64,000 nucleotides of DNA, taken from assembly GCA_021204175.1 (NCBI GenBank), contig JAJPZT010000075.1, forward strand, positions 35,123 to 99,122, in the 5' to 3' direction. The stretch comes from Clostridiales bacterium (GTDB lineage Bacteria > Bacillota > Clostridia > Lachnospirales > CAG-274). The notes beneath the pieces were generated by a model. That model ran no database searches and was not told the origin of the DNA. It saw only the letters and a program-made list of their open reading frames with translations. A program made the translations under genes and the position numbers. Positions 27,044 to 55,633 of this stretch are shown piece after piece; the first letter of the stretch is position 1; each line of letters opens with the position of its first letter.

Positions 27044-27700
27044 TCAGCTTACACACAGCAGCCTGTCTCTTTGACTGCCGAATTTTTTATTGATTATTCC
27101 CAAATTAAAGCCTACCAAAAATGCGGCGACCACAGTGCCTATGCCCACACTGCCGGGACTGTGAATGGCAATGAGACAGACTATAAGAGAGGTCAAAACC
27201 ATAGTTGCGTCAAAGCAAATTTTTATTTTGGAAAACTCTGTTTTTGTTATTTTCGAAACCGCCTGTGTGGCTCCCTCGCCAGCAAGGGGCATAATATTTG
27301 CCGGAAGATAAAAGAAAATGCCTACGGCTATCAAAACAGTGCTTATAAGCACGAAAACTATTCGAATTGCCATATTGTCTACGGGAGGCAGAAAGCTAAC
27401 GAGAAAATTACACATTGTGGTAAATTTTCCGAAAAGAATACCAACAATGATTTGCAGGAGATTTACGGGCTTAAAGTCCTTTCTCAAAAGAATTATTTGA
27501 AGCAGAACCAAAAAGGCGTGAAATAAAATTGTGGCGTTTCCCATTTCCATTCCGAAAACACAGGTTATAGTGTAGGGAATTGAACTGACCGGCGATACCC
27601 CTAAATTCGACTTAACCGACAGGGCTATTCCCAAAGTCATTATAAACAGCCCGAAAATGTAAAATATAAATCTTCTTACAATCGCATTGTGCTTTGTCAT
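27044..27700 (-). CDS. YczE/YitT-like polytopic membrane protein
   Basis: About 218 aa with the SNLGVSPVSSIPY motif. Start is ATG 27700, with a GGAGG upstream. Confidence 0.55.
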   Translation of the reverse strand: MTKHNAIVRRFIFYIFGLFIMTLGIALSVKSNLGVSPVSSIPYTITCVFGMEMGNATILFHAFLVLLQIILLRKDFKPVNLLQIIVGILFGKFTTMCNFLVSFLPPVDNMAIRIVFVLISTVLIAVGIFFYLPANIMPLAGEGATQAVSKITKTEFSKIKICFDATMVLTSLIVCLIAIHSPGSVGIGTVVAAFLVGFNLGIINKKFGSQRDRLLCVS

Positions 27701-27898
27701 TGTGTTCGTTCCTCCGATTAATATTAAATATTTCATAAGCCTTCGGCGATTGATATTATAATATTAAAAATCGTGAATGTCAACTCTTTACGAATAATTA
27801 TGGGGATAAGTGCAGATTTTTATGTTTTCAGTGCATTTTTTCGGAATTGATTGCTTTTAAGAATATAAATTGATATAATTAATAAATGATTTTCGGTA

Positions 27899-27929
27899 TT
27901 GACAAGGGGGGGGTCAGAAAGCTTATAAT
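27899..27929 (+). promoter_or_regulatory. consensus -35/-10 promoter with a G8 tract in a 19-nt spacer
   Basis: TTGACA (27899-27904), then A plus G8 (27906-27913) plus TCAGAAAGCT, then TATAAT (27924-27929). Confidence 0.5.
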
Positions 27930-27961
27930 TGTTTCAATAACTGAAGAAAAGGAGGATCAAT

Positions 27962-28450
27962 ATGAAGAAAATAAGCAGAAGGATTTTCATTGCTTTGCTT
28001 ATTGTTTTGGGGGCTTTGTTTTTGGGAAAATGGGCTTTAATCAAGAGTGGTGTTTTGCTTGATTTTGATTATGCGGGGAAATATTCTTATGAAGCACAGG
28101 AGTATTTGTCGGCTTTAGATGACAGTGATTACGGCTTATATTATCCCACGTGGCTGTTGATTACCTGTGAAGAGGACTTAAAGGAAAATGAATTAGGTAT
28201 AGACCTGTCGGAAATTGATTTATCCCAAATTGATTTTGACAAGAATTATGCTGTTCTGACGCTTGGGTCAAAGCTGAGAGCCCTGCACCCCTGTAACAGA
28301 AAAAACGTTAATCTCGAAAACGAAAGCTTTTGGGCTGATGTGTATGTAAAGAAAACAGATGACAATGACACTTATATTTATAAAATCAATAAATATAATT
28401 TGGCTAAAAACCTGTTGTTTGCTCCTTCCGGAGTGTTTTGTGTGTTATAA
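27962..28450 (+). CDS. hypothetical membrane-anchored protein
   Basis: 162 aa with an N-terminal TM/signal anchor and an AAAGGAGG SD. No motif recognised. Confidence 0.5.
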   Translation: MKKISRRIFIALLIVLGALFLGKWALIKSGVLLDFDYAGKYSYEAQEYLSALDDSDYGLYYPTWLLITCEEDLKENELGIDLSEIDLSQIDFDKNYAVLTLGSKLRALHPCNRKNVNLENESFWADVYVKKTDDNDTYIYKINKYNLAKNLLFAPSGVFCVL

Positions 28451-28500
28451 TCTGAAAATTTTTTTAGAAAGAGTGAAAATTGAAAGGGGAGTTAAATAAT

Positions 28501-29898
28501 ATGAAAAAAATATTTGTGGCGGTTTTAATTATTGTGTTGGGCTTGAATTTTATTTCGGTGTATGCTGATGACGGCGAAAGCAGTGCCGACAGCGGCGTCA
28601 ATGCGGAAGCTGCCGGCGAGACAGAGGAAACAAGCCGGGAAGAACAGGGGGAGATTATAAACTATGTTACACGCCTTGACTGTGTTTCGGAAATAATGAA
28701 AGCGGCAGGGCTTCAGGCGGACGGATATTTTTCAAGCGAATATATTACTATGGAAAAAATGTTTGAAGATGATCCCTTTTATGACAGGGAATATGCTTAT
28801 TTTGCCAAACGTACAGGTGTTCTCATAGGCGAGGAAAATGAAGCTTCGCCCACTTGGGTTAACTGCCGTCCCAACGAAACAGTGACAATAAAGGAATGTA
28901 CGGGGTTTATTATGAGAACCATTGACCCCGAAGCACAGGGAAAAACAGACGATGAGCTTTTTGAAAGCGCTAAGCTTCGAGGGCTTGTTAAGGTTGATGA
29001 CAGCTTTTATTCCGATCCCGATAAAGCTTTAAGCTATAACGATTATTATACACTGATTTGCAGAATGTTAAAAGAAAAACGTTATTTGTATTTTATATTT
29101 AACGATAATCTGGAGCCTTTTGACTGGCGCAGAGATTTTCTATGGAATAAGGCGGAGCAGTATGATGAATTGGGCGAAATGACATATTTTGAATATTTAA
29201 AGTCCTGCTGCGGAATTGACGAAAACACCCCCGAAACTGCGGCTGTAAATCAAATTATTAAAAAGCTGAACATTACAAGAATTTCACAGCTGAATTGCCT
29301 TATGGCTGTTACAAAAATCGGCGGAATGAGAGTTGAAGGGCTTTTTGAAGGCGACGACGTATTTCTTTCCGTTATGGAAGCTGCGGGTTTAAACAAGAAG
29401 GGTATGGAGCTGGCAAAAACCTTTGGCTACAGAGTTTGGAATATGCCCGACTACAGTGCTGAAACATCTGTGTTTTCTGTTGTCTACGGCATACTGCCCG
29501 ACGATGAGCCTGAAGACGAAAAAAGCTATTTCGACTATAACAAGAAGGTTAATCTGTTTTGCACAAAGGCTTCCGTTAAGGACTGCGTCTCTTATATTAT
29601 GTGGTTTCTTACGGATATGCCGCAGGATATAACTTCTGAAGAAATTTATAACCTTGCCTTACAGGTCGGGCTTGTTCAGGTGGGAGACAGCATATATGAG
29701 GATTGGGAAGAGCCCATTGACTATGTCACCTTCAAAACCCTGCTTAACAGAATGCTCAGTATGAAGAGATATAACTATTTTGAAGAGGAGAACAGCGAAA
29801 GCCTGTTTGAAGCTGAAAGATGCGACAAAAAGGGAGAGGTTACATATCTTGACTTTTTCAAAGAGATTTGCGGCTTAGAGGAAGCTCCCGAATTATAA
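28501..29898 (+). CDS. hypothetical secreted protein with an internal two-fold module duplication
   Basis: Has a signal peptide, MKKIFVAVLIIVLGLNFISVYA. Two roughly 200-aa modules each end in M(L/LS)(K/M)(E)KRY(L/N)YF...GE(M/V)TY(F/L)(E/D)(Y/F)(L/F)K..CG(I/L).E..PE. Confidence 0.55.
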   Translation: MKKIFVAVLIIVLGLNFISVYADDGESSADSGVNAEAAGETEETSREEQGEIINYVTRLDCVSEIMKAAGLQADGYFSSEYITMEKMFEDDPFYDREYAYFAKRTGVLIGEENEASPTWVNCRPNETVTIKECTGFIMRTIDPEAQGKTDDELFESAKLRGLVKVDDSFYSDPDKALSYNDYYTLICRMLKEKRYLYFIFNDNLEPFDWRRDFLWNKAEQYDELGEMTYFEYLKSCCGIDENTPETAAVNQIIKKLNITRISQLNCLMAVTKIGGMRVEGLFEGDDVFLSVMEAAGLNKKGMELAKTFGYRVWNMPDYSAETSVFSVVYGILPDDEPEDEKSYFDYNKKVNLFCTKASVKDCVSYIMWFLTDMPQDITSEEIYNLALQVGLVQVGDSIYEDWEEPIDYVTFKTLLNRMLSMKRYNYFEEENSESLFEAERCDKKGEVTYLDFFKEICGLEEAPEL

Positions 29899-29912
29899 TA
29901 ATATTTAAAGAA

Positions 29913-29945
29913 AGAGAGAGGCGGCTGAACCTCTCTCTTTTTTTG
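29913..29945 (+). terminator. rho-independent terminator
   Basis: AGAGAGAGG-CGGCTGAA-CCTCTCTCT followed by T7. Confidence 0.8.
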
Positions 29946-30210
29946 TTGAAATCAATTATATGTTTTGCAAAACCTCAAAAACGGGGTCTGTTCGGCACTG
30001 GGCGGCACCTATAACAATTCCGAATAAAAGAATTGTTTGACATTCGTAAATGTTCGGATTGTGAGAAAATACGGGCTGATTTCACTGAAATTCTTTCGGT
30101 TTTTCACAATGGAAATCGGCGAGCTTTATCGAAAACTGTATTATGTGTCAAAATTGATTGATATTTTTATCTGTTTGTTGAAAAAAAACTGAAAAAATTA
30201 AATTTGCCTA

Positions 30211-30239
30211 TTGAAAAAGTTCTTGAAGTGGTATATAAT
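30211..30239 (+). promoter_or_regulatory. sigma-A-type promoter upstream of the giant adhesin gene
   Basis: TTGAAA (30211-30216), a 17-nt spacer, then TATAAT (30234-30239). Confidence 0.5.
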
Positions 30240-30330
30240 AATTAAAAAGAACTTAAGGTTTGTGTAAAACTTTTTTAATGAAATATTAATAAATTGTTAA
30301 ATATGATCTCTTTCATAAAATAAAAATGAA

Positions 30331-30339
30331 GGGGGGGGG
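30331..30339 (+). repeat. G9 homopolymer 5 nt upstream of the adhesin TTG start
   Basis: Counted directly from the sequence: ATGAA-GGGGGGGGG-CTCGG-TTG. Confidence 0.8.
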
Positions 30340-30344
30340 CTCGG

Positions 30345-33300
30345 TTGGGCAGAAAAAATCAGTCGGAAGACAAATATTTTAAAAAACAAAGACGTAAAAA
30401 ACTATGGCACCGTTTGCTTTTGGCAGCCGGTTCCATTGTTGTGTTTATAACCACTTATATGCTTATCCTCCCTGCCATAACCGCTGAGGTGGGCTCAATC
30501 GAGCTTTTCGACGAGTCCCTTTCCTCCGGCAGCGCAGTAACCCCCGTCGAAGACGAAACCTACATTATTATAGAAGAAACTACCGAAGAAACGGTTGAAG
30601 AAACCACCGAGATTATATCTGAAGAAACAACAGAAGACCCGTCTGAAGCCCTTTCCGAAGAAACCTCTGACCAAGCCTTAGAGGAAACTACATCGGGAAC
30701 AAGCTCCGGCGGCACAGATACCTCCGGCGGCGAAACTTCCGAAGAAACTGCCGAAGCTGCCACAGATGAGGTCTCTGAGGAAATAACCGAAGAAGCAGCG
30801 GAGGAAACTACTGAAGAGGAGTTTGTTATAACAGCCGACAGTATGATTTATGCTCTTCTGGGCGAAGCAGGCATAGCTCTCACAAGTGAAGAGGACGGAG
30901 AAGAAGAGGAAGACGACGGCTCAATCGAGCTTACCCTTACCGCCACAGTCAGCGGCAGCAGCTATTATACTGACACATATGGCACTGAAATATCATTCAG
31001 AGGAACGGGAACAAACGACAGCTATAACTGTGAATATGACCCTGACACAGGTAACTTTTCCGTAGACCTTGCTATCGACTTTGTAATGTCAGCTGCGATT
31101 TTGACAAGCGGCAATGTAACCGATTATAACAACGACACTCTTAACGGCAGCTATTACGGAGTTTATTCAATCGATTTACCTGAGGGAATTATAGTTCCCG
31201 ACAATGTTCTTAACAAACGTTACGAAGGCGTTATTTCCGGAACAAGCACCGTACTTTTTGACCTTTATTTTGAGAAATATACAGACGAAACTACCGGAGC
31301 AACTCGCTACAGAGTTTATATGGGCTTTTTAAACAGCCAGATAACAGGTAATGAAGAGACAATCAAAGGTACAATCAGCCTTGAGGGCTACATCAGCTCA
31401 TCCAGCTACAGCGACGGCAGCGTTGTCGTAACGGTAGGCGGTGAAAATGTTATTGAGATTTCACCGGATGAAATAACCTACAGCAGCGGCGAAACCATAG
31501 ACGAGGATATTTACGTTAAAAAATCAGGCTCTTACAACACAACCACAGACGAAAGCGGAAACACTACATCAACAGTCAGCTACACTGTTATGGTTTATAC
31601 CAAAAAGGGTACGGGTGAAACCATAACCCTGACCGACAGCTTTACTACGGAGTTTTCTTCTTCCGTTTTGTCTGACCCTTCAAGCAGCCTTCAAAGCATA
31701 ACCGTAAGCACAGGCACAAACACAGCCTATGTTTACTGGGAGGGCAAAGCAGATAATTTTAATGACAGCGAATTTGTAGAGGATACAGAAAGCCCCATAA
31801 CTCTTACTAATGGCACAGGAAACTACACTTATTATTATGACATCGACGGAAATTTGGTTATTACTCTTCCCGGTCTCAGTGATGTAGACGGCAAAGACGG
31901 ACAGGAAACCATTCTTGGCAGCAGTGACTGGAGATATTCAAAGGAAGATGTTGAGGTTTATTATGTAACCTACACCTATAAGGTAAGCCCTCAATATTCT
32001 GACTCCACTGCCAATAACACCGTTAAGGCTTCAACAGAGGACACAACAGCAGTCGAAACCATAACCGACACCTCCTCTGCTGAGGTTACCGTATCCAAAA
32101 AGACCGCCATTTCAAAAACAGCGGAATATTATACCGAGACAGACAGCGACGGCAATGAAAACGGCTATATAAAATGGACTATTGTAGTGGGCGACGGCTC
32201 AGCCTCTCTTGCAGGCTATACCCTGACGGATACAATGTTCAGCTCCGTCGGAGGAATAGAAGCCCTCAATTATAGTTCATTATATGAAAATGTTCATGTT
32301 TATACCGGCTCTTCAGAAGATGACAGCAACTTTGTTTATCAATACTATCCGGCGAACTGTTTTAGTATTGTAGATGAAAACGGCGTATTAACAGGCATTA
32401 AATTTCTCGAAGATGCCGAAAGTCAATATACAATCGTCTATACAACAGAAGCTTCTTCGTGGGATCAAACATATTTATCCAACACGGCTACCCTTACCCC
32501 CACAGAAAGCACAGACCCCGATGTTACATATACCCACGATTACGGAGATTCGAGCTTGTCGGCAGGCACAGAGGTTACTGTTCCTGCGGCAGGGGGCGAC
32601 ACCCTTGACAAAAAGATAGGCACTCCCGAATTATCCTCTGACGGAAAAACCTATACCTTTCCCTGGACTGTAACCATAACCATTCCCACAGGGGGCATAC
32701 CCGCCGGGTCTGAAATCGAAGACAGCCCCAGCACGGATAACCACTATATGACCTATGACCAGGCTAAGGCTCTGGGTGAGCTTGTTCACGAGGTTTTCGG
32801 CGACAACACCTACGTCTCCGTAACCTTCAGAAACAGCAGCTGGCAGTGGATTCATATAGACAACCTTGACGAAAGCACTTATTATTACGGCTATAAAATA
32901 ACCTTTAATAAAGCTGTAGCCTATGAAACCTATTCACAATATACAAATCTGACCGAAGATAATAAGCAGAGTTTAGGCTTAATTGACAGTTTCACCTACA
33001 CATCGGGCGACACCACTGCAACAGCCTCATATGATCATTATGACAACAAGGTTACTTTAAACTACTACTCCACAGGCTCAATATCCGACAGTCCCGCTTC
33101 AAGAACCTTTTCAAACACAGTCAGCGGCGGCGGCAGCTATAAGTCGGCTTCATACACTTATACAAATAATGTGGTTAAATACGGCTATTATCAGTCTCAC
33201 GGAACTGCCACAAGCCCCTACGCCACAAGCTTTACATCGACTGACGGCGAGGTCTCATGGGTAGTTAAGGTAGTTTTAGATACCTCCAACAACTGTTATA

Positions 33301-36300
33301 CCATAACGGATACTCTGCCCACAGGGGTCACTCTGAAAAAACTTCAGGTTTCAAACAGCGCATCAGATTCCAACAGCAAGTCAACACTGTATGCGGAAAC
33401 AACCACCGTTGATCCCTCTGTTGAAACCACCACAGCTGACCCCTCGACGGAAACAACTACCGCAGACGCCGGAATTTCCGAAGGGGAAACCCTTTCGGGA
33501 ATATATGACGGTGACTTAGATGTTTCCTACACGCTGGGCACAAGCGACAATACCGTTACGGTTTATGCCAATTACGGTGAAAATGCCAATGCAAGCAGCA
33601 TAACCCTTTATCTTTTCTATACCTGTCAGATAGCCGATGACTATCAAGGCGAAAATACTGCTTTTAATAACACTGTAAAAGTAAAAAATACTACTACCGA
33701 CAAAGACTACGGCTCAGGCTCTCAAACCACAACGGTATATTGGGATGTCTCTACGGGAACGGAAACAAAAACCGTCTCAAAGGATGACTATTTCGACACC
33801 AACAACAACAAAATAAAATACGCCATAACCATAGACAATGACAACGGAAACCCGTATACATATACTGTGACAAATGAAGACGGCTCAACAAGTCAGGAAT
33901 ATGACGACGATATGGTGATTTACGACGTCCTTTCCTACAACAGCTACCCCACCTACGGTCTTGTAAGAAGCGCAAGCCTTCAAAGCGACACCCTTAAGGT
34001 ATATGTAGACGACGGAACGCTGACCATAGCCGAAGACAAAACAGTCAGCGGCGGAACAGAGCTTGATTCGTCTCAATACAGCTGGACTCTTGAAAAGGTG
34101 GTCAACACCGGCTATGACGGAACGGAAGCCGTAGTTCAGACAATAAAGGTTACTTTGCCCAATGACGGAAGAAAATATGTTTTAGCATATGCATATAAAA
34201 TATCTATCATTACAGACGAAGTTTGGGCGAATAACTACACCTGGATCGACAACGACGGCACTGACGTAAAGGCTCACGCCACAAACTACGCCTATCTCAC
34301 CGTAAACGGCGAAACCAAAGTAACAACAGACTCAATTGAAACAACGGAATCCTATAACTTTGATTCGGTATCAGCCGAAGGAAGTACGGGTACGGGCTAC
34401 ACAATATATAAGGTTGATAAAGACAATTTCGCCCTGAAGCTTGAGGGAGCAACCTTTGACCTCTATGTTTATAACAAGGACGCTACCCCTGTAGGCTTTG
34501 AAAAGGTAGCAAGCATAACCACCAATTCAAAGGGCACAGCAAGCATTTCCGGCGTTATAAAATATTTGGACACATCTACGGGAACTTATTATGACCAAAA
34601 AGGCGATAACTGGGAACCTTACTACAGAATAACAGACCCCTCAGACAGCTCAAAATACATCTATATTCCCATAAACACACTCTGTTATTTTGTAGAGTCT
34701 GAAGCACCCACAGACTATCAGCTTGACGGAACAAAATATTATTTCTATTACGGCGAAACCATAGCCACTCTTTTAACAAGTGTTACAGGTCACGAATATG
34801 CCACTGACGTAACAGAAGCCGTAAATATTATTTTGGGCAATTCGGAGTATATCACTAACGGCCACACAGTGGATTATTACTCTGAAAAAACAAAAATTTC
34901 CGTTATAAAGTCATGGACGAATAACGAAGAAGACCCTAACGACACATACGAAAAAACCGACGACAGCCTTAACTTCACACTTTACAGAATCCGCAAGGAC
35001 TTAGACGGAAACTATTGGCCTGAAGAAGATGATGAGGACGAAACGTCTACCTCTGAAGGAGCAACGGAAGCCACAACCGAAGTGGTTACAGTAGGAGAAA
35101 TACCTTGGCAAGTAGATTTTCAGTGGAGTACAAATGTTGCTTCAGGAACTGTCGGGTATACAGAAAACACTAATTCATTAAAACTATCTTTATATCATCA
35201 ATATGCAGCTATAAATGAATCTGCCGGATATATATGGTATCCGGGGGTAACAATAACTGACGGAAACAGTAATGTTTTAGTAGAATATACTGGGTCGTCT
35301 TATGGTGAGGGTACGCTTGTAAGCGGCAATGGTTCTTGGACGGGTTCAACGACCAGTGCTGTAGGAGGTACATTTACAGCCACGATTAACCTAACAGATT
35401 CTGTTAAAGAAAAAGGCTTGATAATTAAACTTACCGATACTAACAATAGCGACACAGAAATATCTGTTTCTTTTGCTCTGTCAAGTGCTTCTGCCACAAC
35501 CACCACAGAAGCGGCTTCCGAGGCCTCTACCGAAGAAGTTTCAGAAGTCTCAACGGAAACCACCACCACAGTCCTCTATGCTCACGTTTTCCAAGACGAC
35601 GTAATAGAGACCACCACAGACGAACAGGGTAACTCCGAGGTGGTGGGGCACACCTTTAATAACGATTATAAGGATTATGAAAAGATAACCGATTCAAGTG
35701 AAAACTTCTTCAAATTCTACGGGGCTTTGACCGACACAAACGGCTCACAAACCTACAACGCTTACAAAGCCAACACAGCCACGCTGCTGACCAGATCCTT
35801 CAAGATGCAGACCAACGTAGACAGCGTCGTGGGCTCAGGCTCAACGACGATTGAATTCACTTCTCAATTGGGCGGTGTGCTGACTATGGTTTTCACAGAT
35901 AAAACCGACACCAACGCAGTAATTATTAACAGCTCCGACGGAACATCTCTAAACAAAACGGCGTCTAACTATAAGCTTCAGTGTCACCTTGACGCAGGCA
36001 GCTACACCATAAAAAAGAGTACATCCTCTTATGTAGTTTACATCTCCTTTGAAGAAGGAGCAGGGGATACATCCTCAGACGGCAACTCCGAGATTTTGAA
36101 CTTCAACGACGGCACAAAAGCCAACGACTTCTTTACTGTCAGCGGCTCCACAACCAGCAGCTACGGCGAGGTTACATATGTAAACTACTACGACACAAGC
36201 TTTACAAGTGCGACAGCTCTGAAAATGGGTTCTTCCTCGTCAATTACCTTTGAAAGCGCAAACGCAGGCACTCTCTATATGGTTTTCACAAACCCCAAGA

Positions 36301-38951
36301 AGGCTGCCTCCGTAGGCGCAAGTATCGACGGTAACGAACACAAGGCGTCAATCACCGACACAACCACCACAGACGGCGAGTATTATATATATGTGCTTTC
36401 CACATACATTGAAGCCGGCAGCCACACAATTAAGAGAATAGGCTCTACCGAATACCTTCTTTATTACATTCAGTTTGTTCCCGACGATTTCGGAAGCGGC
36501 GAGTGGAAGGAGCTTAACACTGACATAACCTCTATTGGCAAGAAAGTCAGCACCTTTACAATAAGCTACGCTTCAAACTGGCGGTGGACCTCAGAAAGTC
36601 TGCCAAGCCAGTGGATTAATGAAGAAACAGGCGAGGTTTTAGGCTACTACGAATATTACGTAGTTGAAGAAAGCCGCTATGACCCTCAGGACTCTTCAAA
36701 ACAGTGCTTCTATACCCTTTATATGAATAATGAGGGTATCGTCTCAGGCTCAATTAAGGTTTCAAACCGTATTAACCCCACTACAAGCGGCGTTGTGAGC
36801 CTTGACGTAAACAAGGTTTGGTATCAGGACGGAAAACAGCTGACATCACCGACAATTGACGACTACTCCGTTTCCTACACACTTTACAGAAAGGTCGTTC
36901 TTCTTTCCTCAACCGATCAGGACACAGGCGGAACTTATTCGGTGAACTTCGACAACAACATTTCCACCTTCTTCACCACAACGGGCACAACCCAGTCCGG
37001 CTCTTCAACCATAGGCACAGGCAACTACGGCGGCACGTCATACTCAACCACTCTTGCTTTTGACAGCACTTCAAGTACAGCCCCAAGCATAGCCTTTGAC
37101 ACCTTAGCCGACAGCGGCGTCCTGACCCTTGTTTTCAGTACGTACCTTCCGCCGGATGTCTATAACTCAAGCTCAAGCTATACCTCCGGCACTACAAACT
37201 ATGTCACCGCCGACGGAACTAACTATTATGCTATTTCTGATGACAGCGGCACTTTGAACAATACATTATATGTTGTTGACAGTTCTTCCTCAAGTGGTTA
37301 TAAGGAATGGGACGGCTCCGGTACATCTATAACCTATTATGCATTCTTTAACGAGAATTTGCAGGTTGATGAAAAGTATACAAGTGATACGAGCTGGAAT
37401 GATGATGATTTTACTTATACAGGCGACACAGACGATACAAGTAAGTTAGTACAGATTTATCAGTATACTGCAAATTCAATAGATGCTACTATGTATCGTC
37501 AAACTGATGCAAATAAGTTCGACAGAAGTAACGGTAACGGAAAAACCTATACTCTTGCAAGAACAAACAGTAACAGCAGTACTACTGATCCTAACAATTT
37601 TACAAGAATAAGAAATAATACATTAACCACAACCGTTGACGAAAAAACCGTAACCGGCGATGGAAAGTGTATAAATCTCTACAGAAGTACTGATGGCGGA
37701 AAAAGCTTCGTATCTATGGAGGGATATACTATAGACGAGGTTAAGGATCAGGAAACGGAAATTAACAACAGCCGTGCCTACTACATAAAGTCAGGCGACA
37801 GCTACATCCAAACCGACGGCAAATTCTACACCCTTCAGCAGTACAACACTGTGGGCTACGCCTTTACCCTGACTGTCCCCGGAGAAACATCAACTGTTTA
37901 TCAGTATGTTTATAACCCGGACACCGAAACCCTGACCATAACCGCAGGCGGCTCGGAGGTTTACAGCGGTTCAATTTCAGACTGCCCCGCAGCTTATCTC
38001 ACAAGCCTTGACATAGACGAAGACAACAACACTGTGGTCTTTGAAATTCCTCTAAGTGTCTACACGGGAGACTACTCAAGCGGCTATAAGGTGGGCTGTG
38101 TAAGCTCGGCTCTCTGTTATCTCTATTATGCCGAATATTTCTATAAGTATAATGACGCTAAAACCGGTATTGCCGTAGGCACAGGCACACTTGACGCCTC
38201 TAACGACTGGTCTGAAGAGTGGAGCAGTCTTACCTACCCCGTTTATGACGCAGAGGGCAACGGCACAATTATAGGCTATTATTCCTATTACATTGTGGAA
38301 ACCTCAGCCGACGGCGAAACGGGAACAACCTATTCGCCCACATATTCAGTCACTATGTATACTCAGGCTCTTGATTCTGACCTTGCTGACCTTGCGGAGA
38401 CGTATAAAGCGACGCTTACTCCTGATGAGAACACTTCAGCAGGAACAACGGCTTACTATAATAGTGATAGTGAACTTATTTATACTGAAACGGCAACAAC
38501 TGACGGCGAGGGTGTTACAACCTACACATATACGGCTTCAAGCGGTGAAACAATTTCGGATATTACAACATATCTTCTTAATTTGTATCTCGAAACTCTT
38601 GAAACCGATAAAGATTCCGAGGGCAATATTACCTATTGCAATACAACCCGTGATCCTAACGATAACTCTGTAATAAGCTCGCAGACGGTTTTGTATTATC
38701 AAGTCTCTGACGGAAACTATTATATCGTTTCATCTGTCAATGACGGCACAAGCTTAACGGCTGCTACCGCAGAAGCCGCTAAAATCAGCAGCTTCACAAT
38801 CACCAACACGGTGGAGGTTCAGGACGTTGTTCTGCCCTCAAGCGGCGGAGACGGCGGATTTAAGTATATTTTAGCAGGAACGCTCACAAGCCTTGGGGCG
38901 ATTCTGCTTCTATATAAATGCAGGAAAGGTTTGAGCACAAACTCCCGATGA
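30345..38951 (+). CDS. giant (2868 aa) sortase-anchored surface adhesin, pilus tip-adhesin candidate
   Basis: Has a basic N-terminus plus TM signal and an E/T-rich acidic linker. Repeated Cna-A-like K...W.I.V modules are present. SpaA/Cna-B-like modules occur (GATFDLYVY...YFVESEAPTDYQL; KISVIKSW...; LDVNKVW...). The C-terminal sorting signal is LPSSG (38832-38846) plus a hydrophobic helix plus KCRKG. Confidence 0.85.
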   Translation: MGRKNQSEDKYFKKQRRKKLWHRLLLAAGSIVVFITTYMLILPAITAEVGSIELFDESLSSGSAVTPVEDETYIIIEETTEETVEETTEIISEETTEDPSEALSEETSDQALEETTSGTSSGGTDTSGGETSEETAEAATDEVSEEITEEAAEETTEEEFVITADSMIYALLGEAGIALTSEEDGEEEEDDGSIELTLTATVSGSSYYTDTYGTEISFRGTGTNDSYNCEYDPDTGNFSVDLAIDFVMSAAILTSGNVTDYNNDTLNGSYYGVYSIDLPEGIIVPDNVLNKRYEGVISGTSTVLFDLYFEKYTDETTGATRYRVYMGFLNSQITGNEETIKGTISLEGYISSSSYSDGSVVVTVGGENVIEISPDEITYSSGETIDEDIYVKKSGSYNTTTDESGNTTSTVSYTVMVYTKKGTGETITLTDSFTTEFSSSVLSDPSSSLQSITVSTGTNTAYVYWEGKADNFNDSEFVEDTESPITLTNGTGNYTYYYDIDGNLVITLPGLSDVDGKDGQETILGSSDWRYSKEDVEVYYVTYTYKVSPQYSDSTANNTVKASTEDTTAVETITDTSSAEVTVSKKTAISKTAEYYTETDSDGNENGYIKWTIVVGDGSASLAGYTLTDTMFSSVGGIEALNYSSLYENVHVYTGSSEDDSNFVYQYYPANCFSIVDENGVLTGIKFLEDAESQYTIVYTTEASSWDQTYLSNTATLTPTESTDPDVTYTHDYGDSSLSAGTEVTVPAAGGDTLDKKIGTPELSSDGKTYTFPWTVTITIPTGGIPAGSEIEDSPSTDNHYMTYDQAKALGELVHEVFGDNTYVSVTFRNSSWQWIHIDNLDESTYYYGYKITFNKAVAYETYSQYTNLTEDNKQSLGLIDSFTYTSGDTTATASYDHYDNKVTLNYYSTGSISDSPASRTFSNTVSGGGSYKSASYTYTNNVVKYGYYQSHGTATSPYATSFTSTDGEVSWVVKVVLDTSNNCYTITDTLPTGVTLKKLQVSNSASDSNSKSTLYAETTTVDPSVETTTADPSTETTTADAGISEGETLSGIYDGDLDVSYTLGTSDNTVTVYANYGENANASSITLYLFYTCQIADDYQGENTAFNNTVKVKNTTTDKDYGSGSQTTTVYWDVSTGTETKTVSKDDYFDTNNNKIKYAITIDNDNGNPYTYTVTNEDGSTSQEYDDDMVIYDVLSYNSYPTYGLVRSASLQSDTLKVYVDDGTLTIAEDKTVSGGTELDSSQYSWTLEKVVNTGYDGTEAVVQTIKVTLPNDGRKYVLAYAYKISIITDEVWANNYTWIDNDGTDVKAHATNYAYLTVNGETKVTTDSIETTESYNFDSVSAEGSTGTGYTIYKVDKDNFALKLEGATFDLYVYNKDATPVGFEKVASITTNSKGTASISGVIKYLDTSTGTYYDQKGDNWEPYYRITDPSDSSKYIYIPINTLCYFVESEAPTDYQLDGTKYYFYYGETIATLLTSVTGHEYATDVTEAVNIILGNSEYITNGHTVDYYSEKTKISVIKSWTNNEEDPNDTYEKTDDSLNFTLYRIRKDLDGNYWPEEDDEDETSTSEGATEATTEVVTVGEIPWQVDFQWSTNVASGTVGYTENTNSLKLSLYHQYAAINESAGYIWYPGVTITDGNSNVLVEYTGSSYGEGTLVSGNGSWTGSTTSAVGGTFTATINLTDSVKEKGLIIKLTDTNNSDTEISVSFALSSASATTTTEAASEASTEEVSEVSTETTTTVLYAHVFQDDVIETTTDEQGNSEVVGHTFNNDYKDYEKITDSSENFFKFYGALTDTNGSQTYNAYKANTATLLTRSFKMQTNVDSVVGSGSTTIEFTSQLGGVLTMVFTDKTDTNAVIINSSDGTSLNKTASNYKLQCHLDAGSYTIKKSTSSYVVYISFEEGAGDTSSDGNSEILNFNDGTKANDFFTVSGSTTSSYGEVTYVNYYDTSFTSATALKMGSSSSITFESANAGTLYMVFTNPKKAASVGASIDGNEHKASITDTTTTDGEYYIYVLSTYIEAGSHTIKRIGSTEYLLYYIQFVPDDFGSGEWKELNTDITSIGKKVSTFTISYASNWRWTSESLPSQWINEETGEVLGYYEYYVVEESRYDPQDSSKQCFYTLYMNNEGIVSGSIKVSNRINPTTSGVVSLDVNKVWYQDGKQLTSPTIDDYSVSYTLYRKVVLLSSTDQDTGGTYSVNFDNNISTFFTTTGTTQSGSSTIGTGNYGGTSYSTTLAFDSTSSTAPSIAFDTLADSGVLTLVFSTYLPPDVYNSSSSYTSGTTNYVTADGTNYYAISDDSGTLNNTLYVVDSSSSSGYKEWDGSGTSITYYAFFNENLQVDEKYTSDTSWNDDDFTYTGDTDDTSKLVQIYQYTANSIDATMYRQTDANKFDRSNGNGKTYTLARTNSNSSTTDPNNFTRIRNNTLTTTVDEKTVTGDGKCINLYRSTDGGKSFVSMEGYTIDEVKDQETEINNSRAYYIKSGDSYIQTDGKFYTLQQYNTVGYAFTLTVPGETSTVYQYVYNPDTETLTITAGGSEVYSGSISDCPAAYLTSLDIDEDNNTVVFEIPLSVYTGDYSSGYKVGCVSSALCYLYYAEYFYKYNDAKTGIAVGTGTLDASNDWSEEWSSLTYPVYDAEGNGTIIGYYSYYIVETSADGETGTTYSPTYSVTMYTQALDSDLADLAETYKATLTPDENTSAGTTAYYNSDSELIYTETATTDGEGVTTYTYTASSGETISDITTYLLNLYLETLETDKDSEGNITYCNTTRDPNDNSVISSQTVLYYQVSDGNYYIVSSVNDGTSLTAATAEAAKISSFTITNTVEVQDVVLPSSGGDGGFKYILAGTLTSLGAILLLYKCRKGLSTNSR

Positions 38952-39095
38952 TGGGGCAGAGCTTAAGCAGAGCCTATGTGCTCAGACTGTGTAAATAAAA
39001 TTAAGGGAGATTTTAAAGACGAAGGGGAGAAACGGTCTTTTATATATAATCCCACGAAAGGAGTGATGTTTAGAAAAAGAGGATTAAATGTCAAT

Positions 39096-39189
39096 CGCTG
39101 AAAACATTAGTTTTCAGCGAAAGAGGAGGGTCAACGGAGTGCAGTCTTGCTTTGGCGTTTACGCCGAAGCAAACGAACGAAGTTTGACC
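39096..39189 (+). repeat. intergenic structured repeat, family A, copy 2
   Basis: CGCTGAAAAC-ATTA-GTTTTCAGCG hairpin, a TGCTTTGGCG-TTTA-CGCCGAAGCA hairpin, and an AAGTTTGACC tail. Aligns with copies 1 and 3. Confidence 0.75.
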
Positions 39190-39196
39190 CGACGAG

Positions 39197-39283
39197 CATC
39201 CCCTTTTAAGGGGAGGGGGACCGCCCATACTGATTTTTTGTAAAAAAATCAGTACAGGCGGTGGTGGGGTATGTTCCATTTGA
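39197..39283 (+). repeat. intergenic structured repeat, family B, degenerate copy fused to family A copy 2
   Basis: CATCCCCTTTTAAGGGGAGG, a long hairpin ACCGCCCATACTGATTTTTT-GT-AAAAAAATCAGTACAGGCGGT, and a GGGGTATGTTCCATTTG tail. Confidence 0.65.
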
Positions 39284-39405
39284 AGCTACTAATTGAAGCT
39301 ACTAAGTCTTTGTAAATGGAACACAGTAATTGTGCAAACTCGGCAATATCAAGTAAAAAATCGAATAGATGGGAAACAACTCACACACAAATAACGACAA
39401 TTTGT

Positions 39406-39415
39406 GGGGGGGGGG
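39406..39415 (+). repeat. G10 homopolymer in the pilin-1 leader
   Basis: Counted directly. It lies 70 nt upstream of ATG 39486. Confidence 0.8.
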
Positions 39416-39485
39416 TAGATTTAGCCGGCCCGTATTAATCGGAAGCGTTTATCAACCTCCACAACTAAGAAAGGATGGTACTTTT

Positions 39486-41219
39486 ATGAAGAAAGTAACA
39501 AGATTTTTTAGCCTCCTCCTCGCAATAGCAATGGTTTTGGCAATGAACTTCGGTACTTTCACCGTTCCGGCGGAGGAAACTACCTATACACTTACAATTA
39601 ACAAACCCACAACGGGACACACATATTCGGCATATCAGATCTTCACAGGTGTTTTGTCTACAGACGGCAAGACCCTCTCAAATATTGCTTGGGGCTCTGC
39701 TACGACAGCTAAATCTTCGGATATTATCACAGCTTTAAAAACTGAACTTGGCTTAGCAGATAACACTGATTACTCAGCAGCCGACATAGCTGCATTGCTT
39801 ACAACAGGCAATATTGAAGCAGTAGCTAAAATATTAGCAACTTATAACGAAGGCTATACATACTTAGGCTCTGCAACATCTTCAGCTGAATGTACAGAAG
39901 GCGGTGAAGGGAAAATCGTTACTATCAGCAAACTTCCCGCAGGTTACTATTTGGTTATAGATACCTTAACAGGTACAGTTGCAGACTATGACGTATATTC
40001 ATCATACATCATTGAAGTAGTGGGAGACGCAACAGCTACCACAAAGCAGGACACACCTGAAATTCAAAAGAAGGTTGACGATAAAGACGATTCTACAGGT
40101 ACTGAAGACAGCACAAGTTGGCAGGATTCAGCTGACTACGACATCGGCGACGCAGTTCCCTTCCAATATACTGTAAAATTGCCCAGTAATTATGCTGACT
40201 ATGACACATATAAGCTCATATTCCACGATGAACAGAGTGACGGCTTGACATTCAACAATGATGTGGCAATAACAGTTTACATCGACGGCGATACAGAAAA
40301 CACATCTCAAGAGAATATTGTTGAACTTTCAACTACTCAGTATAAGGTTAATACAGATCAGCAAAGTGACAGCTGTGATTTTGAGATTACAATCAGTGAC
40401 TTAAAATCTGTTTCAACTTCTATTACTGCAAGCAGTGTAATCGTTGTAACCTATACATCAACACTCAATGATCACGCAGCAGTGGGCTCAACAGGCAATG
40501 ACAACGAGGTTTACCTTGAATACTCAAACAATCCTAACGATTCTTCCAAAACAGGTAAAACTCCGAAGGATAAAGTAACGGTATTCACCTTTGATGTAGC
40601 TATACACAAGGTAGACAGCAGCGGTAATCCTCTGGGCGGCGCAGACTTCACACTTTATAAGTATGACGCCGAAAGCACAACTTGGGTAGAGGTTTCAACA
40701 GAAACTTCCACATCTGCAGACCCTTCAACCTCAAAAGCTGTTATAAAGACAGTGGAAGATGAATCTTATACTACAGTAGTGGTTGAGAACAGTACCGAAG
40801 TTACAACTACAGTAACCGTAGAAAAGAGCAAATTCACCTTCAGCGGTCTTGACGCAGGTCAGTATATGCTTAAGGAGACAACAACTCCCGACGGATATAA
40901 CACAGCCGCAGATACTTACTTCACAATCGTAGCTTCACACTCTACAACTGCATCTGATCCCGAACTTACAGAGCTTTATATAACAGACGCAGACGGTACG
41001 GTTTTATCGAATAAATATTCCGGAGAAGAAGGTGCTCAATCACCGACATTTACTGTTGATAATTCAGCCGGAATTTCGACTAACATCATAAACTACACAG
41101 GTGCTGAACTGCCTTCAACCGGCGGTATGGGTACAAAAATATTTTATACTTTGGGCGGAGTCCTTGTTTTAGGGGCAGGCGTTCTTCTGATTGTTAAGAG
41201 AAGAATGAGAAACGCTTGA
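39486..41219 (+). CDS. LPXTG-anchored backbone pilin paralogue 1 (isopeptide-forming fimbrial subunit family)
   Basis: Signal peptide MKKVTRFFSLLLAIAMVLAMNFG. E-box-like YMLKETTTPDGYN. A SpaA/Cna-B-like C-terminal domain. Sorting signal LPSTG (41109-41123) plus TM plus KRRMRNA. An AAAGGATGG SD precedes the start. Confidence 0.85.
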   Translation: MKKVTRFFSLLLAIAMVLAMNFGTFTVPAEETTYTLTINKPTTGHTYSAYQIFTGVLSTDGKTLSNIAWGSATTAKSSDIITALKTELGLADNTDYSAADIAALLTTGNIEAVAKILATYNEGYTYLGSATSSAECTEGGEGKIVTISKLPAGYYLVIDTLTGTVADYDVYSSYIIEVVGDATATTKQDTPEIQKKVDDKDDSTGTEDSTSWQDSADYDIGDAVPFQYTVKLPSNYADYDTYKLIFHDEQSDGLTFNNDVAITVYIDGDTENTSQENIVELSTTQYKVNTDQQSDSCDFEITISDLKSVSTSITASSVIVVTYTSTLNDHAAVGSTGNDNEVYLEYSNNPNDSSKTGKTPKDKVTVFTFDVAIHKVDSSGNPLGGADFTLYKYDAESTTWVEVSTETSTSADPSTSKAVIKTVEDESYTTVVVENSTEVTTTVTVEKSKFTFSGLDAGQYMLKETTTPDGYNTAADTYFTIVASHSTTASDPELTELYITDADGTVLSNKYSGEEGAQSPTFTVDNSAGISTNIINYTGAELPSTGGMGTKIFYTLGGVLVLGAGVLLIVKRRMRNA

Positions 41220-41257
41220 TTTCCCTCTGAATAGGGTTACGCTTTGAGAATAGGCTT

Positions 41258-41285
41258 CCCGCCTTTCGGGGCGGGGGCTTTTGAA
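41258..41285 (+). terminator. rho-independent terminator after pilin 1 (probably partial)
   Basis: CCCGCC-TTTCGG-GGCGGG followed by GGCTTTTG. Confidence 0.55.
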
Positions 41286-41467
41286 GAACCGCCGATATCT
41301 TACCGGCGGCTGTCCAAAGGTAAAAAATATTTTTGATAACTCCATATTATTCCTCTGTTAGCTGTCCTGTGGTATGTATAAGCCTTTCTGTAAGTGTCAG
41401 TCTATGTCTTAAGGGACAAAGCCAAAACCAAAAATGTATTTTGACACGAAACTTAATTTTTTAAAGT

Positions 41468-41474
41468 GGGGGGG
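41468..41474 (+). repeat. G7 homopolymer in the pilin-2 leader
   Basis: Counted directly. It lies 76 nt upstream of ATG 41551. Confidence 0.8.
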
Positions 41475-41550
41475 TAATCGATACGTTAAGGAAACCGTTT
41501 AACGTTTATCGTCCTCCACAAAAAAATCCACAAAGAAAGGACAGAATAAT

Positions 41551-43266
41551 ATGAAAAAAATATCTAAAATATTAAGCCTCCTCCTCGCATTAACTATGGT
41601 TCTCTCTATGAACCTCGGCGTTTTAACCGCTCACGCAGATAGTTACACAATTAAAATTAATGAAAGTACTACAGACTATAAATATGAAGCTTATCAGATC
41701 TTTGACGGCGATTTATCCGGCAATACTCAGGGCAGCTATGTATTATCCAACATCGTTTGGGGTACTAATATAAGCAAAGACGGAACTCCTGAATATTCAA
41801 CTGTAATGACAGCTGTTAAGGAAATAACAATTGACAATTCCACATATCCGTTTGAAAACTGCACCTCTGCTGCAGATGTAGCTGATGTATTGAAAGATCT
41901 TTCGAAAGATGCAGCCCTTCTGCAGGAATTTGCTGATGTAATCTCTAAATATATAACAGGCAGCGGTGTTGCAAGTGAGTATAAAACAGACCACTATGAA
42001 ATTTCAATATCCGACCCCGGCTATTATCTTGTAAAGAATACATCTGCACCTGATGAAGACGGAGTTTACACAAGATTTATTCTTTTGGTTGTAGGTGATG
42101 TTGAGGCAACTCCTAAGTCTGCTGTACCTTCAGTAGAAAAGAAGGTTTATGAAGAATCCTATAACAGTGTAGCTCAAGAAATATCCGATTACGGTACTTA
42201 TTTCAATGATGTAGCTGACTATGACATCGGTGATTCGATTGACTTCAAATTTATAGGTACACTTCCCGATAACTTGAGTTCTTATTCAACTTATAAATAT
42301 GTATTCCACGATACAATGGACGCCGGTCTTACTTTTGACAGCGACAGTGTTGTGGTTACTATTGACGGCACAACTGTTCCGGCATCATATAGTGGAACTA
42401 CAAACTACACAGTTGTTTATGACGCTTCTAGTGCACAGACTGACGGCTGTACATTTGAAATAAGCTTTAGTGATATTTTAAGTCTTGTGGATTCTACAGG
42501 TGCAAAAATATCAGTATCAAGTACAAGCAAGGTTGTTGTTACATATAAAGCTACACTGAATGAAAATGCTAAAATAGGTCTTCCCGGCAACGTGAACGAA
42601 GTTTATCTTCAATATTCAAACAACCCCAATGAAGGCGGCAGCGGCGACACAGGTACAACACCTAAAGACAAGGTTATCGTTTTCACATATGAACTTGACG
42701 TAACAAAGGTTGACGGAACTGATAATACTAAAACTCTTGAAAACGCTGAATTTAAGCTTTATAAGGAAGTAAGCGGCGTTAAGTATTATGCTAAAGTTAC
42801 AAACGGCAAGGTAACAGGCTGGACAACAGACCCAGATGAAGCTGCTGTATTAACTTCTGGCACTGACGGTAAATTCAGCATAGCAGGTCTTGATGACGGC
42901 ACATACTTCCTGTTAGAGACAAAGGCTCCTACAGGGTATAATCTTCTTTCCGACCCTGTTGAACTTACTATAACGGCAAACACAGTTAATGGTCAGAGCT
43001 GGTCCGGAACCGCAACTGATGCTTTAGCCGCATGTGACTCTAATACAGACCCTGACTCAGCTTCATTAACAATTACAGTGGGTACAGCAAAAACCAGCGG
43101 AAATTCAACTGATGGTACAGTTGGTACAACTGTAGCGAATAACACAGGTGCTACACTTCCCGAAACAGGCGGTATGGGCACAAAGATCTTCTACACATTA
43201 GGCGGAATACTTGTTGTTTGCGCAGGCGTTCTCCTTATTGTTAAGAGAAGAATGAGAAACGCTTAA
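41551..43266 (+). CDS. LPXTG-anchored backbone pilin paralogue 2
   Basis: Signal peptide MKKISKILSLLLALTMVLSMNLG. E-box-like YFLLETKAPTGYN. Sorting signal LPETG (43156-43170). The C-terminal tail GGMGTKIFYTLGG..AGVLLIVKRRMRNA is shared with pilin 1. Confidence 0.85.
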   Translation: MKKISKILSLLLALTMVLSMNLGVLTAHADSYTIKINESTTDYKYEAYQIFDGDLSGNTQGSYVLSNIVWGTNISKDGTPEYSTVMTAVKEITIDNSTYPFENCTSAADVADVLKDLSKDAALLQEFADVISKYITGSGVASEYKTDHYEISISDPGYYLVKNTSAPDEDGVYTRFILLVVGDVEATPKSAVPSVEKKVYEESYNSVAQEISDYGTYFNDVADYDIGDSIDFKFIGTLPDNLSSYSTYKYVFHDTMDAGLTFDSDSVVVTIDGTTVPASYSGTTNYTVVYDASSAQTDGCTFEISFSDILSLVDSTGAKISVSSTSKVVVTYKATLNENAKIGLPGNVNEVYLQYSNNPNEGGSGDTGTTPKDKVIVFTYELDVTKVDGTDNTKTLENAEFKLYKEVSGVKYYAKVTNGKVTGWTTDPDEAAVLTSGTDGKFSIAGLDDGTYFLLETKAPTGYNLLSDPVELTITANTVNGQSWSGTATDALAACDSNTDPDSASLTITVGTAKTSGNSTDGTVGTTVANNTGATLPETGGMGTKIFYTLGGILVVCAGVLLIVKRRMRNA

Positions 43267-43300
43267 AATTAGTTAGCTTTAAAAAAACCGAATAAAGATA

Positions 43301-43333
43301 CCTCCGCCGCCTTCCCACGGCGGAGGACTTTTG
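43301..43333 (+). terminator. rho-independent terminator after pilin 2
   Basis: CCTCCGCCG-CCTTCCCA-CGGCGGAGG followed by ACTTTTG. Confidence 0.7.
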
Positions 43334-43363
43334 CAGAAGTACTCTCTTTCGGCACACGACAAA

Positions 43364-43420
43364 GCTTCCCCTTTTAAGGGGAAGTACCTGCCGATAGGCA
43401 GGGGATAGGGTGCTTTCCAT
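43364..43420 (+). repeat. intergenic structured repeat, family B, short copy
   Basis: GCTTCCCCTTTTAAGGGGAAGT, a short hairpin CCTGCC-GATA-GGCAGG, then GGATAGGGTGCTTTCCAT. Confidence 0.7.
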
Positions 43421-43605: not shown

Positions 43606-44463
43606 ATGAAAATTGACAAAGTGACAATATTTTTGTTTTTAATTTTACTGGGCGGAATGGGTCTGCTTTTATATCCCACTGTCAGCGACTATTGGAACTC
43701 ATTCCACCAGTCAAGAGCCATAGCCTCATATGTAGAGGCGGTTGAAAGCTTAAGCACAGAGGACTATGAAGCGATTATTCAGGCGGCAAGAGACTATAAC
43801 GCAAAGCTTTATAACAACCCCGGCAGGTGGCAAATGACGGAGGCAGAACTTGAGGAGTATAACAGTCTCCTTGACGTTTCAGGCTCAGGAATTATGGGCT
43901 ATATCGACATAGACAAAATCAATGTGGAGCTGCCTGTTTATCACACTGTAGACGACGCTGTTCTTCAGGTCGCCGTGGGGCATATGCCCGGCTCTTCACT
44001 GCCAATCGGCGGAACAAACACCCACGCCGTTTTGTCAGGTCACAGGGGTCTGCCTTCAGCAAGGCTTTTTACTGATTTGGATAAGCTGACAGAAAAGGAC
44101 ACATTTGTAATTACGTTTCTTGACGAAAAAATTACCTACGAGGTTGACCAAATTAATATCGTAGAGCCCACCGACGCTTCAAAGCTTGCTTTTGCCCCCG
44201 GGGAGGATATTGTTACACTTATAACCTGTACACCCTACGGCGTAAATTCTCACAGGCTTATGATTAGAGGTCACAGGGTGGAAAACGCAGAGGAAGAAAT
44301 TGTTTTGAATGTGTCGGCTGACGCAAATAAAATTGACCCGGTTATTGTTGCGCCTATGGTAGCAGTTCCCATACTGCTGCTGTTGTTTGCGGTTATGATG
44401 GTAAAAACAAGCAAAAAGGGAAATAAAAAGGAAAACAAGAAGGAAAATAATGATAAACAGTAA
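43606..44463 (+). CDS. class C (pilin-polymerising) sortase
   Basis: 285 aa with an N-terminal TM segment, the catalytic His block VLSGHRG, TLITCTPYG with the Cys, a conserved Arg (LMIRGHR), and the C-terminal TM typical of class C. Confidence 0.88.
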   Translation: MKIDKVTIFLFLILLGGMGLLLYPTVSDYWNSFHQSRAIASYVEAVESLSTEDYEAIIQAARDYNAKLYNNPGRWQMTEAELEEYNSLLDVSGSGIMGYIDIDKINVELPVYHTVDDAVLQVAVGHMPGSSLPIGGTNTHAVLSGHRGLPSARLFTDLDKLTEKDTFVITFLDEKITYEVDQINIVEPTDASKLAFAPGEDIVTLITCTPYGVNSHRLMIRGHRVENAEEEIVLNVSADANKIDPVIVAPMVAVPILLLLFAVMMVKTSKKGNKKENKKENNDKQ

Positions 44464-44482
44464 AAATTCAGGCGGTGTTTCT

Positions 44483-52550: not shown

Positions 52551-52556
52551 TAAATT

Positions 52557-52919: not shown

Positions 52920-52969
52920 GTCTCGCAAAGATGCACACTTAATTCTTATGTTTTTTGAGGGCTTGCTTT

Positions 52970-55609: not shown

Positions 55610-55633
55610 ACTTTCTTCGAGGAGACGATTTTT

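Follow-up and report, generated by a model that had tools for sequence, protein, structure and literature searches.

Four poly-G tracts in a clostridial sortase-pilus island as probable length-variable dials of pilus expression

Repeat-driven phase variation is textbook knowledge in Neisseria, Haemophilus, Campylobacter and Treponema. Among the pili of gut commensals it has, to our knowledge, been demonstrated only in bifidobacteria, where it works by frameshift. As Danne et al. reportedly described in 2014, the pil1 pilus of Streptococcus gallolyticus phase-varies through a leader peptide with GCAGA repeats and an attenuator. Here we describe four poly-G tracts, designated T1 to T4, in a sortase-dependent pilus island on a 64,000-nucleotide stretch of DNA from an uncultured Clostridiales bacterium of gut type (GenBank contig JAJPZT010000075.1, positions 35,123 to 99,122 of the forward strand), hereafter called the window. 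We conclude that these tracts are slippage-prone and under selection to keep their position; judged from sequence comparison, they probably serve as mutable dials for pilus expression.

In Bifidobacterium breve UCC2003, the pilus clusters bbr_0113 and bbr_1889 have an intragenic G tract that separates the start codon and signal peptide from the rest of the open reading frame (ORF), and slippage joins the two frames (Penno et al. 2022, PMC9187656). This is the bifidobacterial precedent that a preliminary description of the window had invoked. Homopolymer switches are also found in promoter spacers, such as the poly-G of Neisseria meningitidis porA, as described in PMC3639595, and that of Treponema pallidum tp0126 (PMC7864442). 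The T. pallidum genes tprE, tprG, tprJ and tprL each have a tract of 7–11 G, 9 being the commonest length, with variation within isolates (PMC7864442). A literature search gave no equivalent in Clostridia of a Gram-positive pilus island with several tracts, in keeping with the earlier supposition that such a system had not been described, and found no poly-G tracts described at sortase pili in Clostridia.

The four tracts were located by a regular-expression scan:

27906-27913, + strand: T1, G8
30331-30339, + strand: T2, G9
39406-39415, + strand: T3, G10
41468-41474, + strand: T4, G7

They are the only G or C runs of 7 or more in the 64-kb window, and each is G on the + strand; this part of the preliminary description, including the coordinates, was reproduced by the scan. 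Each tract lies 5′ of one of four consecutive units of the pilus island, over a span of 13.6 kb. About 89% of the window is coding; all four tracts are nevertheless non-coding, with G on the sense strand, whereas the earlier wording had allowed for a position at a start codon. An exact protein look-up matched the window to the NCBI proteins MCD8239000-06. T3 falls within a mechanical ORF that begins at 39369; since the signal peptide and the NCBI annotation (577 aa) put the true start of backbone pilin 1 at 39486, T3 is non-coding. The genes of the island are:

27962-29898, + strand: two-gene unit after T1, encoding proteins of 162 aa (27962-28450) and 465 aa (28501-29898)
30345-38951, + strand: tip adhesin, 2868 aa, with CBM77 and an LPSSG sorting signal; NCBI start identical
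39486-41219, + strand: backbone pilin 1, 577 aa, SpaA-type, LPSTG
41551-43266, + strand: backbone pilin 2, 571 aa, SpaA-type, LPETG
43606-44463, + strand: class C sortase (Pfam)
44450-45694, + strand: basal Cna_B pilin (Pfam), which holds a G6 at 45226
45694-46323, + strand: second sortase (Pfam)

The island thus contains what is expected of a SpaA-type sortase-dependent pilus: a tip adhesin, GramPos_pilinBB/SpaA pilins, LPXTG signals, a class C sortase and a basal pilin. Pfam matches and protein termini agree with the genes that had been assigned downstream of each tract. In the unit after T1, the 162-aa protein has an N-terminal membrane anchor and the 465-aa protein a signal peptide, and no Pfam family was found in either. 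The two backbone pilins are 41% identical.

Both this locus and the clusters of B. breve UCC2003 are sortase-pilus loci of gut commensals with a sense-strand G tract of varying length at the 5′ end and a very large tip protein next to it (2674 aa there, 2868 aa here). The present locus differs in that each backbone pilin has its own tract and that four tracts lie in one island. With the tpr genes of T. pallidum it shares the feature that several paralogous surface-protein genes each have their own tract of 7–11 G.

The case for non-random tracts rests on placement and on the relatives, and the run count alone is weak. Seven runs of at least 6 were observed where Markov models of order 1-5 predict 13-18, so that such runs are depleted. 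Four runs of at least 7 compare with 2.2 expected for independent, identically distributed letters and 2.9-4.6 for Markov order 1-5, and the count is not enriched. The longer classes exceed expectation, with three runs of at least 8 against 0.6-1.2, and two of at least 9 against 0.16-0.33, a number matched in 1-8 of 200 simulations; this bears out an earlier rough estimate that runs of 9 or more should be rare. The next-longest class comprises three runs:

8931-8936: C6, in a FTSW_RODA_SPOVE gene
45226-45231: G6, coding, in the basal pilin gene
55699-55704: G6, near the 5′ end of a hybrid histidine-kinase gene

The first two had been listed in the preliminary description as the C6 in rodA and the G6 in the basal pilin; the third had been overlooked.

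Related islands were obtained by a protein-guided scan of species-representative genomes, which contained no genome of the window's own species (top pilin match 57%) and gave five syntenic islands, L005-L009, from related metagenome-assembled genomes (MAGs). Their sortase genes are 75-85% identical to those of the window at the nucleotide level; the cores of the pilins have diverged, and conservation is seen in leaders and gene ends. Tracts occur at matching positions in at least five related MAG species, with lengths of 7-11. All ten G or C runs of at least 7 in L005-L009 are sense-strand G (10/10). Their context is GT-G(n)-TA (n = 7-11), and they precede the start codon by 5-6 nt at adhesin genes and by 79-86 nt at pilin genes. 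The 25-nt flanks are 62-72% identical at T2- and T4-type sites and about 80% at T3-type sites; the tracts are nonetheless uninterrupted, the sole exception being one leader of L009, which reads GAGGGAGGG. More distant pilin loci showed neither the tract nor the associated motif. A loose DNA pattern run against viral contigs and the pattern GTGGGGG...CCTCCAC...AAGAAAGGA run against metagenome contigs gave chance matches only, and neither pattern found the clade.

Other G tracts were seen further afield. In L137, a related MAG, a C8 on the + strand at 8787-8794, which is G8 in the sense direction, lies about 77 nt into the gene for a 560-aa Beta_helix surface protein and is a candidate intragenic frameshift tract in the same genome group. 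Two G8 tracts (10226-10233 and 12901-12908) occur in the adhesin-pilin-...-pilin island of a more distant MAG labelled Eggerthellaceae (L011, 45% GC). One of them is located 49 nt past the first pilin, with CCTCCTCC behind it, and the other about 105 nt ahead of a second pilin-sized ORF. An inverton was considered in the distant pilus loci L126-L129 and rejected, as the DNA is identical and the gene-call differences are caller noise.

Variation between strains was assessed in Logan assemblies of the window's strain; these, like all sequences used for comparison, are short-read metagenome assemblies. T4 is G7 in the window and in L004 (SRR15221345), G9 in L136 (SRR15221346) and G10 in L001 (SRR15221343), and for T3 the window has G10 and L001 (SRR15221343) has G9. 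The variant contigs have just two further substitutions each over about 4 kb. Two sister-species sequences that are 97.1% identical over 10.3 kb also differ at a pilin-leader tract, with G7 in L005 and G8 in L140. At least T3 and T4 therefore vary between near-identical strains against conserved flanks, which is the length polymorphism that the preliminary description had proposed to look for. The tracts show two hallmarks of contingency loci: all four are uninterrupted homopolymers of about 7 or more in a 5′ control region, and T3, T4 and the sister-species leader differ in length between strains with the flanks conserved.

In L140 (8396-10219), the G8 allele led the gene caller to fuse an upstream ATGGGAAACA ORF with the pilin, giving a product of 607 aa instead of about 570; tract length thus alters the automated annotation of pilin genes.

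The tract at the adhesin start stands in a compact unit downstream of a conventional promoter:

30211-30239, + strand: adhesin promoter TTGAAA-17-TATAAT, found by the promoter scan and kept in L008
30305-30347, + strand: T2 unit, consisting of a CU-rich arm GAUCUCUUUCAU (30305-30316), AUGAA (30326-30330), G9 (30331-30339), CUCGG and the TTG start (30345-30347)

The adhesin start lies 5-6 nt past the tract in the window, L008, L007 and L005 (TTG, TTG, TTG and ATG, respectively), and because this start codon is conserved at that distance, T2 is placed in the Shine–Dalgarno position. The length of T2-type tracts is 8-9 in all species, and the distance from an upstream TGA to the start is constant at 18 nt. 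An ATG or GTG occurs 19 nt 5′ of the adhesin start in three species, without a ribosome-binding site. As in B. breve, the window and L008 have an ATG immediately ahead of T2; unlike in B. breve, the tract comes before the conserved start and the whole signal/anchor segment, and L005 has an in-frame TAA between its T2-type tract and the ATG start. On these grounds, and with NCBI calling the same start, a frameshift of the Bifidobacterium type at T2 was rejected.

In the predicted fold of the window and of L008, the CU-rich arm pairs with AUGAA and the first five or so G of the tract. A folding scan over tract lengths gave an expected number of unpaired G of 0 for G5 or shorter, 1.6 for G7, 3.5 for G9 and 4.5 for G10. 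These predictions suggest that T2 length may exert graded control of translation: T2 would be the ribosome-binding site of the adhesin, each G above about five would expose one more to the ribosome, and a change of length would adjust adhesin translation stepwise.

The two pilin tracts have a different setting, in which the following elements were identified:

39403-39462, + strand: predicted T3 leader hairpin, formed by UGUG plus G10 (39406-39415), an inner hairpin and UAUC-AA-CCUCCAC (39456-39462)
39467-39475, + strand: ribosome-binding site AAGAAAGGA ahead of backbone pilin 1
41255-41282, + strand: GC-rich hairpin followed by TTTT after pilin 1, terminator-like; read from the sequence and unlisted by the terminator scan
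41466-41519, + strand: predicted T4 leader hairpin, formed by GUG plus G7, a CGAUA:UAUCG middle stem, an inner hairpin and CCUCCAC (41513-41519)
41533-41541, + strand: ribosome-binding site AAGAAAGGA ahead of backbone pilin 2

The backbone-pilin leaders of the clade share one layout: GT-G(n)-TA, a variable part, TATC-nn-CCTCCAC, AAGAAAGGA and ATG. When folded separately, all eight leaders examined (8/8) were predicted to form one long hairpin, closed by GUGGGGG:CCUCCAC and with a middle stem that involves UAUC, while the sequence of the apical hairpin varied among them. The inner segments alone were more stable than shuffled sequences in 8 of 9 cases (Stouffer z -5.5). In L006, a 133-nt insertion lies between the hairpin arms and leaves both intact, and the interrupting A of L009 stands opposite the U of CCUCC in the predicted fold. 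A search of 27700-41700 against Rfam 15 gave no covariance-model match at E <= 1. In a scan of tract lengths the stem saturated at about 5 G; the optimum was G9, which is also the modal length, with G7 and G10 weaker by 3-4 kcal/mol.

T3 and T4 would accordingly in this model form the 5′ arm (GUGGGGG) of a leader hairpin closed by the invariant CCUCCAC before each backbone-pilin gene of the clade, and shifts in their length would tune the stability or processing of the leader and not turn the gene off. The distances from the T3- and T4-type tracts to conserved blocks vary (17-27 nt upstream and 38-133 nt downstream), which argues against a fixed promoter geometry. The arrangement is reminiscent of S. 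gallolyticus pil1 in that a leader repeat of a Gram-positive sortase-pilus operon is coupled to an RNA hairpin, here a predicted one; it differs in that pil1 needs a translated leader peptide and a terminator, whereas here neither frame nor start is conserved among the upstream ORFs that run through the tract, and the hairpin is without a U tail.

Three further models for T3 and T4 were tried and rejected. A leader peptide was considered, since ATGGGAAACA opens an ORF through the tract; it does so in some leaders only, the upstream ORF of L008 ends before the tract, a start is missing in L007b, and ribosome-binding sites are lacking throughout. A promoter of the extracytoplasmic-function sigma factor type (GAAAC-N17-CGAC) fits the T3 leader of the window, L007 and L008 only, and its spacing is lost in L005, L006 and L009. 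Masking of the pilin ribosome-binding site by CCUCCAC was likewise discarded, as folding predicted the same accessibility whether the tract is present or absent. At 39282-39307, about 100 nt 5′ of T3 and in the expected promoter region of pilin 1, TTGAAGCTACTAA occurs twice in tandem as a direct repeat.

T1 is the only one of the tracts that lies in a recognizable promoter spacer:

27899-27929, + strand: T1 promoter, consisting of TTGACA (27899-27904), a 19-bp spacer containing G8, and TATAAT (27924-27929); read from the sequence
27949-27955, + strand: AAGGAGG ribosome-binding site ahead of the 162-aa gene

The promoter was not listed by the promoter scan, and its 19-bp spacer is beyond the 16-18 limit of that scan. 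The tract makes up 8 of the 19 bp, and G6 would restore the 17-bp optimum. As in porA and tp0126, the poly-G of T1 sits between -35 and -10, and its length would shift the spacing around this optimum; a tract of that kind was found at T1 and not at T3 or T4. The differences from porA and tp0126 are the Gram-positive Clostridiales host, the perfect consensus hexamers, the 19-bp spacing of the present allele, the lack of observed length variation (one independent sample) and the lack of the tract in the promoter of relatives. T1 would thus act at the level of DNA, the current G8 allele with its 19-bp spacer being weak and G6-G7 alleles strong. A perfect TTGACA-17-TATAAT is also present on the - strand at 27755-27783, facing the DUF6198 gene, and the 225-bp intergenic region thereby holds two divergent consensus promoters, with a G tract in one only.

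The preliminary description had suggested that the adhesin, the two pilins and the exported pair may be switched independently, with combinatorial surface variation as the result. The tracts are not equivalent ON/OFF switches; they have three anatomies, a promoter spacer at T1, a Shine–Dalgarno position at T2 and a leader hairpin at T3 and T4, and T2 to T4 are more likely graded tuners than ON/OFF switches. We infer that the tracts are transcribed, that the predicted hairpins form and that tract length affects expression. The reading that we consider most likely, and to which we give an even chance, is that T2 to T4 tune expression by degrees and that T1 is a classic spacer switch. A bolder form of it, put forward only tentatively, takes the hypermutable poly-G as a working part of the mRNA, as the ribosome-binding site of the adhesin and as one arm of each pilin-leader hairpin; slippage would then yield heritable, graded and independent settings for the tip adhesin, the two shaft pilins and the accessory exported pair. 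If true, this would be a mutable RNA-structure rheostat, unlike the known frameshift or promoter-spacing switches.

Several results weigh against graded tuning with a spacer switch. The length evidence comes from assembled contigs. At T1 and T2, no length difference was seen in one independent sample, and exact-protein look-ups with the 465-aa protein, the 346-aa neighbour and the flanking DUF6198 gene added no alleles of either tract. Both known homologues of the gene downstream of T1 are without the tract, one of them (L139) having TTGACA-17-TATTAT in the equivalent place; because of these tractless homologues, we regard T1 as a lineage-specific insertion in the promoter spacer. The T2 hairpin has weak z-scores (-1.8 and -1.35) and was not predicted in L005. 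For T3 and T4, the predicted accessibility of the ribosome-binding site hardly changes over G5-G12, so that changes of tract length may be close to neutral; the sequence of the outer and middle stems does not vary and thus offers no support from covariation (RNAalifold was uninformative); and the promoter scan found no canonical promoter 5′ of either pilin gene.

The most serious competitor of graded tuning, which we consider possible though less probable, is that nothing out of the ordinary attaches to the G runs: T2 would be a plain ribosome-binding site and T3 and T4 would be helix arms, made of G alone only because this base can pair with either C or U in a pyrimidine-rich partner. Slippage would then create noise in their length that is tolerated without serving phase variation or tuning. 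The predicted helix, in which a G9 tract is nearly fully paired and which is most stable at G9, also the commonest length, would fit this well, as would the flat predicted accessibility of the ribosome-binding site for G5-G10, the constancy of T2-type tracts at 8-9 with 18 nt from TGA to start, and the fact that every tract is sense-strand G, in line with an RNA role. It accounts less easily for three G-U wobbles at which A would pair better, yet A is found in only 1 of 12 leaders, for the T4 alleles of 7 and 10, two below and one above the optimum within one strain lineage, or for T1, which lies in a promoter spacer and is without a pairing partner; G runs are, moreover, otherwise depleted within the window. 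Rather unlikely, in our judgement, is that T3 and T4 are promoter-proximal switches at the DNA level of the T. pallidum tpr type, with the tract outside the mRNA, between a -10-like hexamer and a transcription start a few nucleotides downstream, short tracts being permissive and long ones not. A TAnnGT hexamer (TAAAGT, TATAGT, TACAGT or TAATGT) does abut the tract in all five T4-type leaders (5/5), ACGACA-16-TAGATT flanks T3, and in T. pallidum tprL the start lies 4 nt after a tract of 7-11 G, G8 being active and G10 inactive (PMC7864442). However, the closest -35-like hexamer is 13-15 bp from the -10, a distance that varies between species, and the hexamers of T3-type leaders are poor (ATTTGT, CGATGT). 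Whereas the tpr tracts lie outside the transcript, T3 and T4 are complementary to the downstream CCUCCAC and are predicted to be part of the leader hairpin; a tpr-like switch would leave unexplained why CCUCCAC and the GU before the tract are invariant, why the A of L009 preserves the structure and why the 133-nt insertion is tolerated.

It is very improbable that the tracts are fixed and that the length differences are assembly or sequencing artefacts at homopolymers. The use of short-read metagenome assemblies for all comparisons could point that way, as could the contigs that start at or inside a tract (L002, L004, L136, L007 and L027). Since contigs likewise break at an unrelated repeat near 43389, we did not take the breaks at tracts as a sign of heterogeneity. 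Contigs that span the tract with perfect flanks differ by as much as 3 nt (G7 versus G10), independent pipelines concur for one sample, the window being identical to L004, the coding G6 at 45226 is unchanged in six of six contigs, and lengths also differ among species assembled by others.

Poly-G contingency tracts, and G tracts at bifidobacterial sortase pili, are already known. What appears to be new is that a multi-tract arrangement is conserved across species, that the tracts are intergenic instead of intragenic and, if the predicted folds are right, that they serve at the same time as a ribosome-binding site and as one arm of the hairpin conserved in the pilin leaders; we regard this hairpin as a new candidate cis-regulatory RNA. 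If the tracts set pilus expression, strains could diversify their adhesin and shaft composition without recombinases or regulators. This would bear on colonisation, on immune and phage evasion, and on the way in which metagenome assembly and gene callers handle such loci.

The pilin genes themselves are mosaics. The leader with the signal peptide and the last 120 nt or so, which encode the sorting signal and anchor, are 80-94% identical between paralogues and species, and the central parts are barely alignable (window 39150-43390 against L005-L009), a pattern suggestive of cassette exchange or of diversifying selection acting on the shaft pilins. A small palindrome, CCCCTTTTAAGGGG, with flanking similarity occurs twice as a repeated intergenic element, at 39197-39222 after the adhesin and at 43365-43384 after pilin 2. 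Six independent Logan contigs start close to the second CCCCTTTTAAGGGG copy, at most about 27 nt downstream of it or, in one of the six, just upstream. The pilus island itself encodes no dedicated transcription factor. Directly downstream of it, at 50118-58564, is a signalling cluster with one response-regulator/HD/GGDEF protein, one Hpt protein and hybrid histidine kinases.

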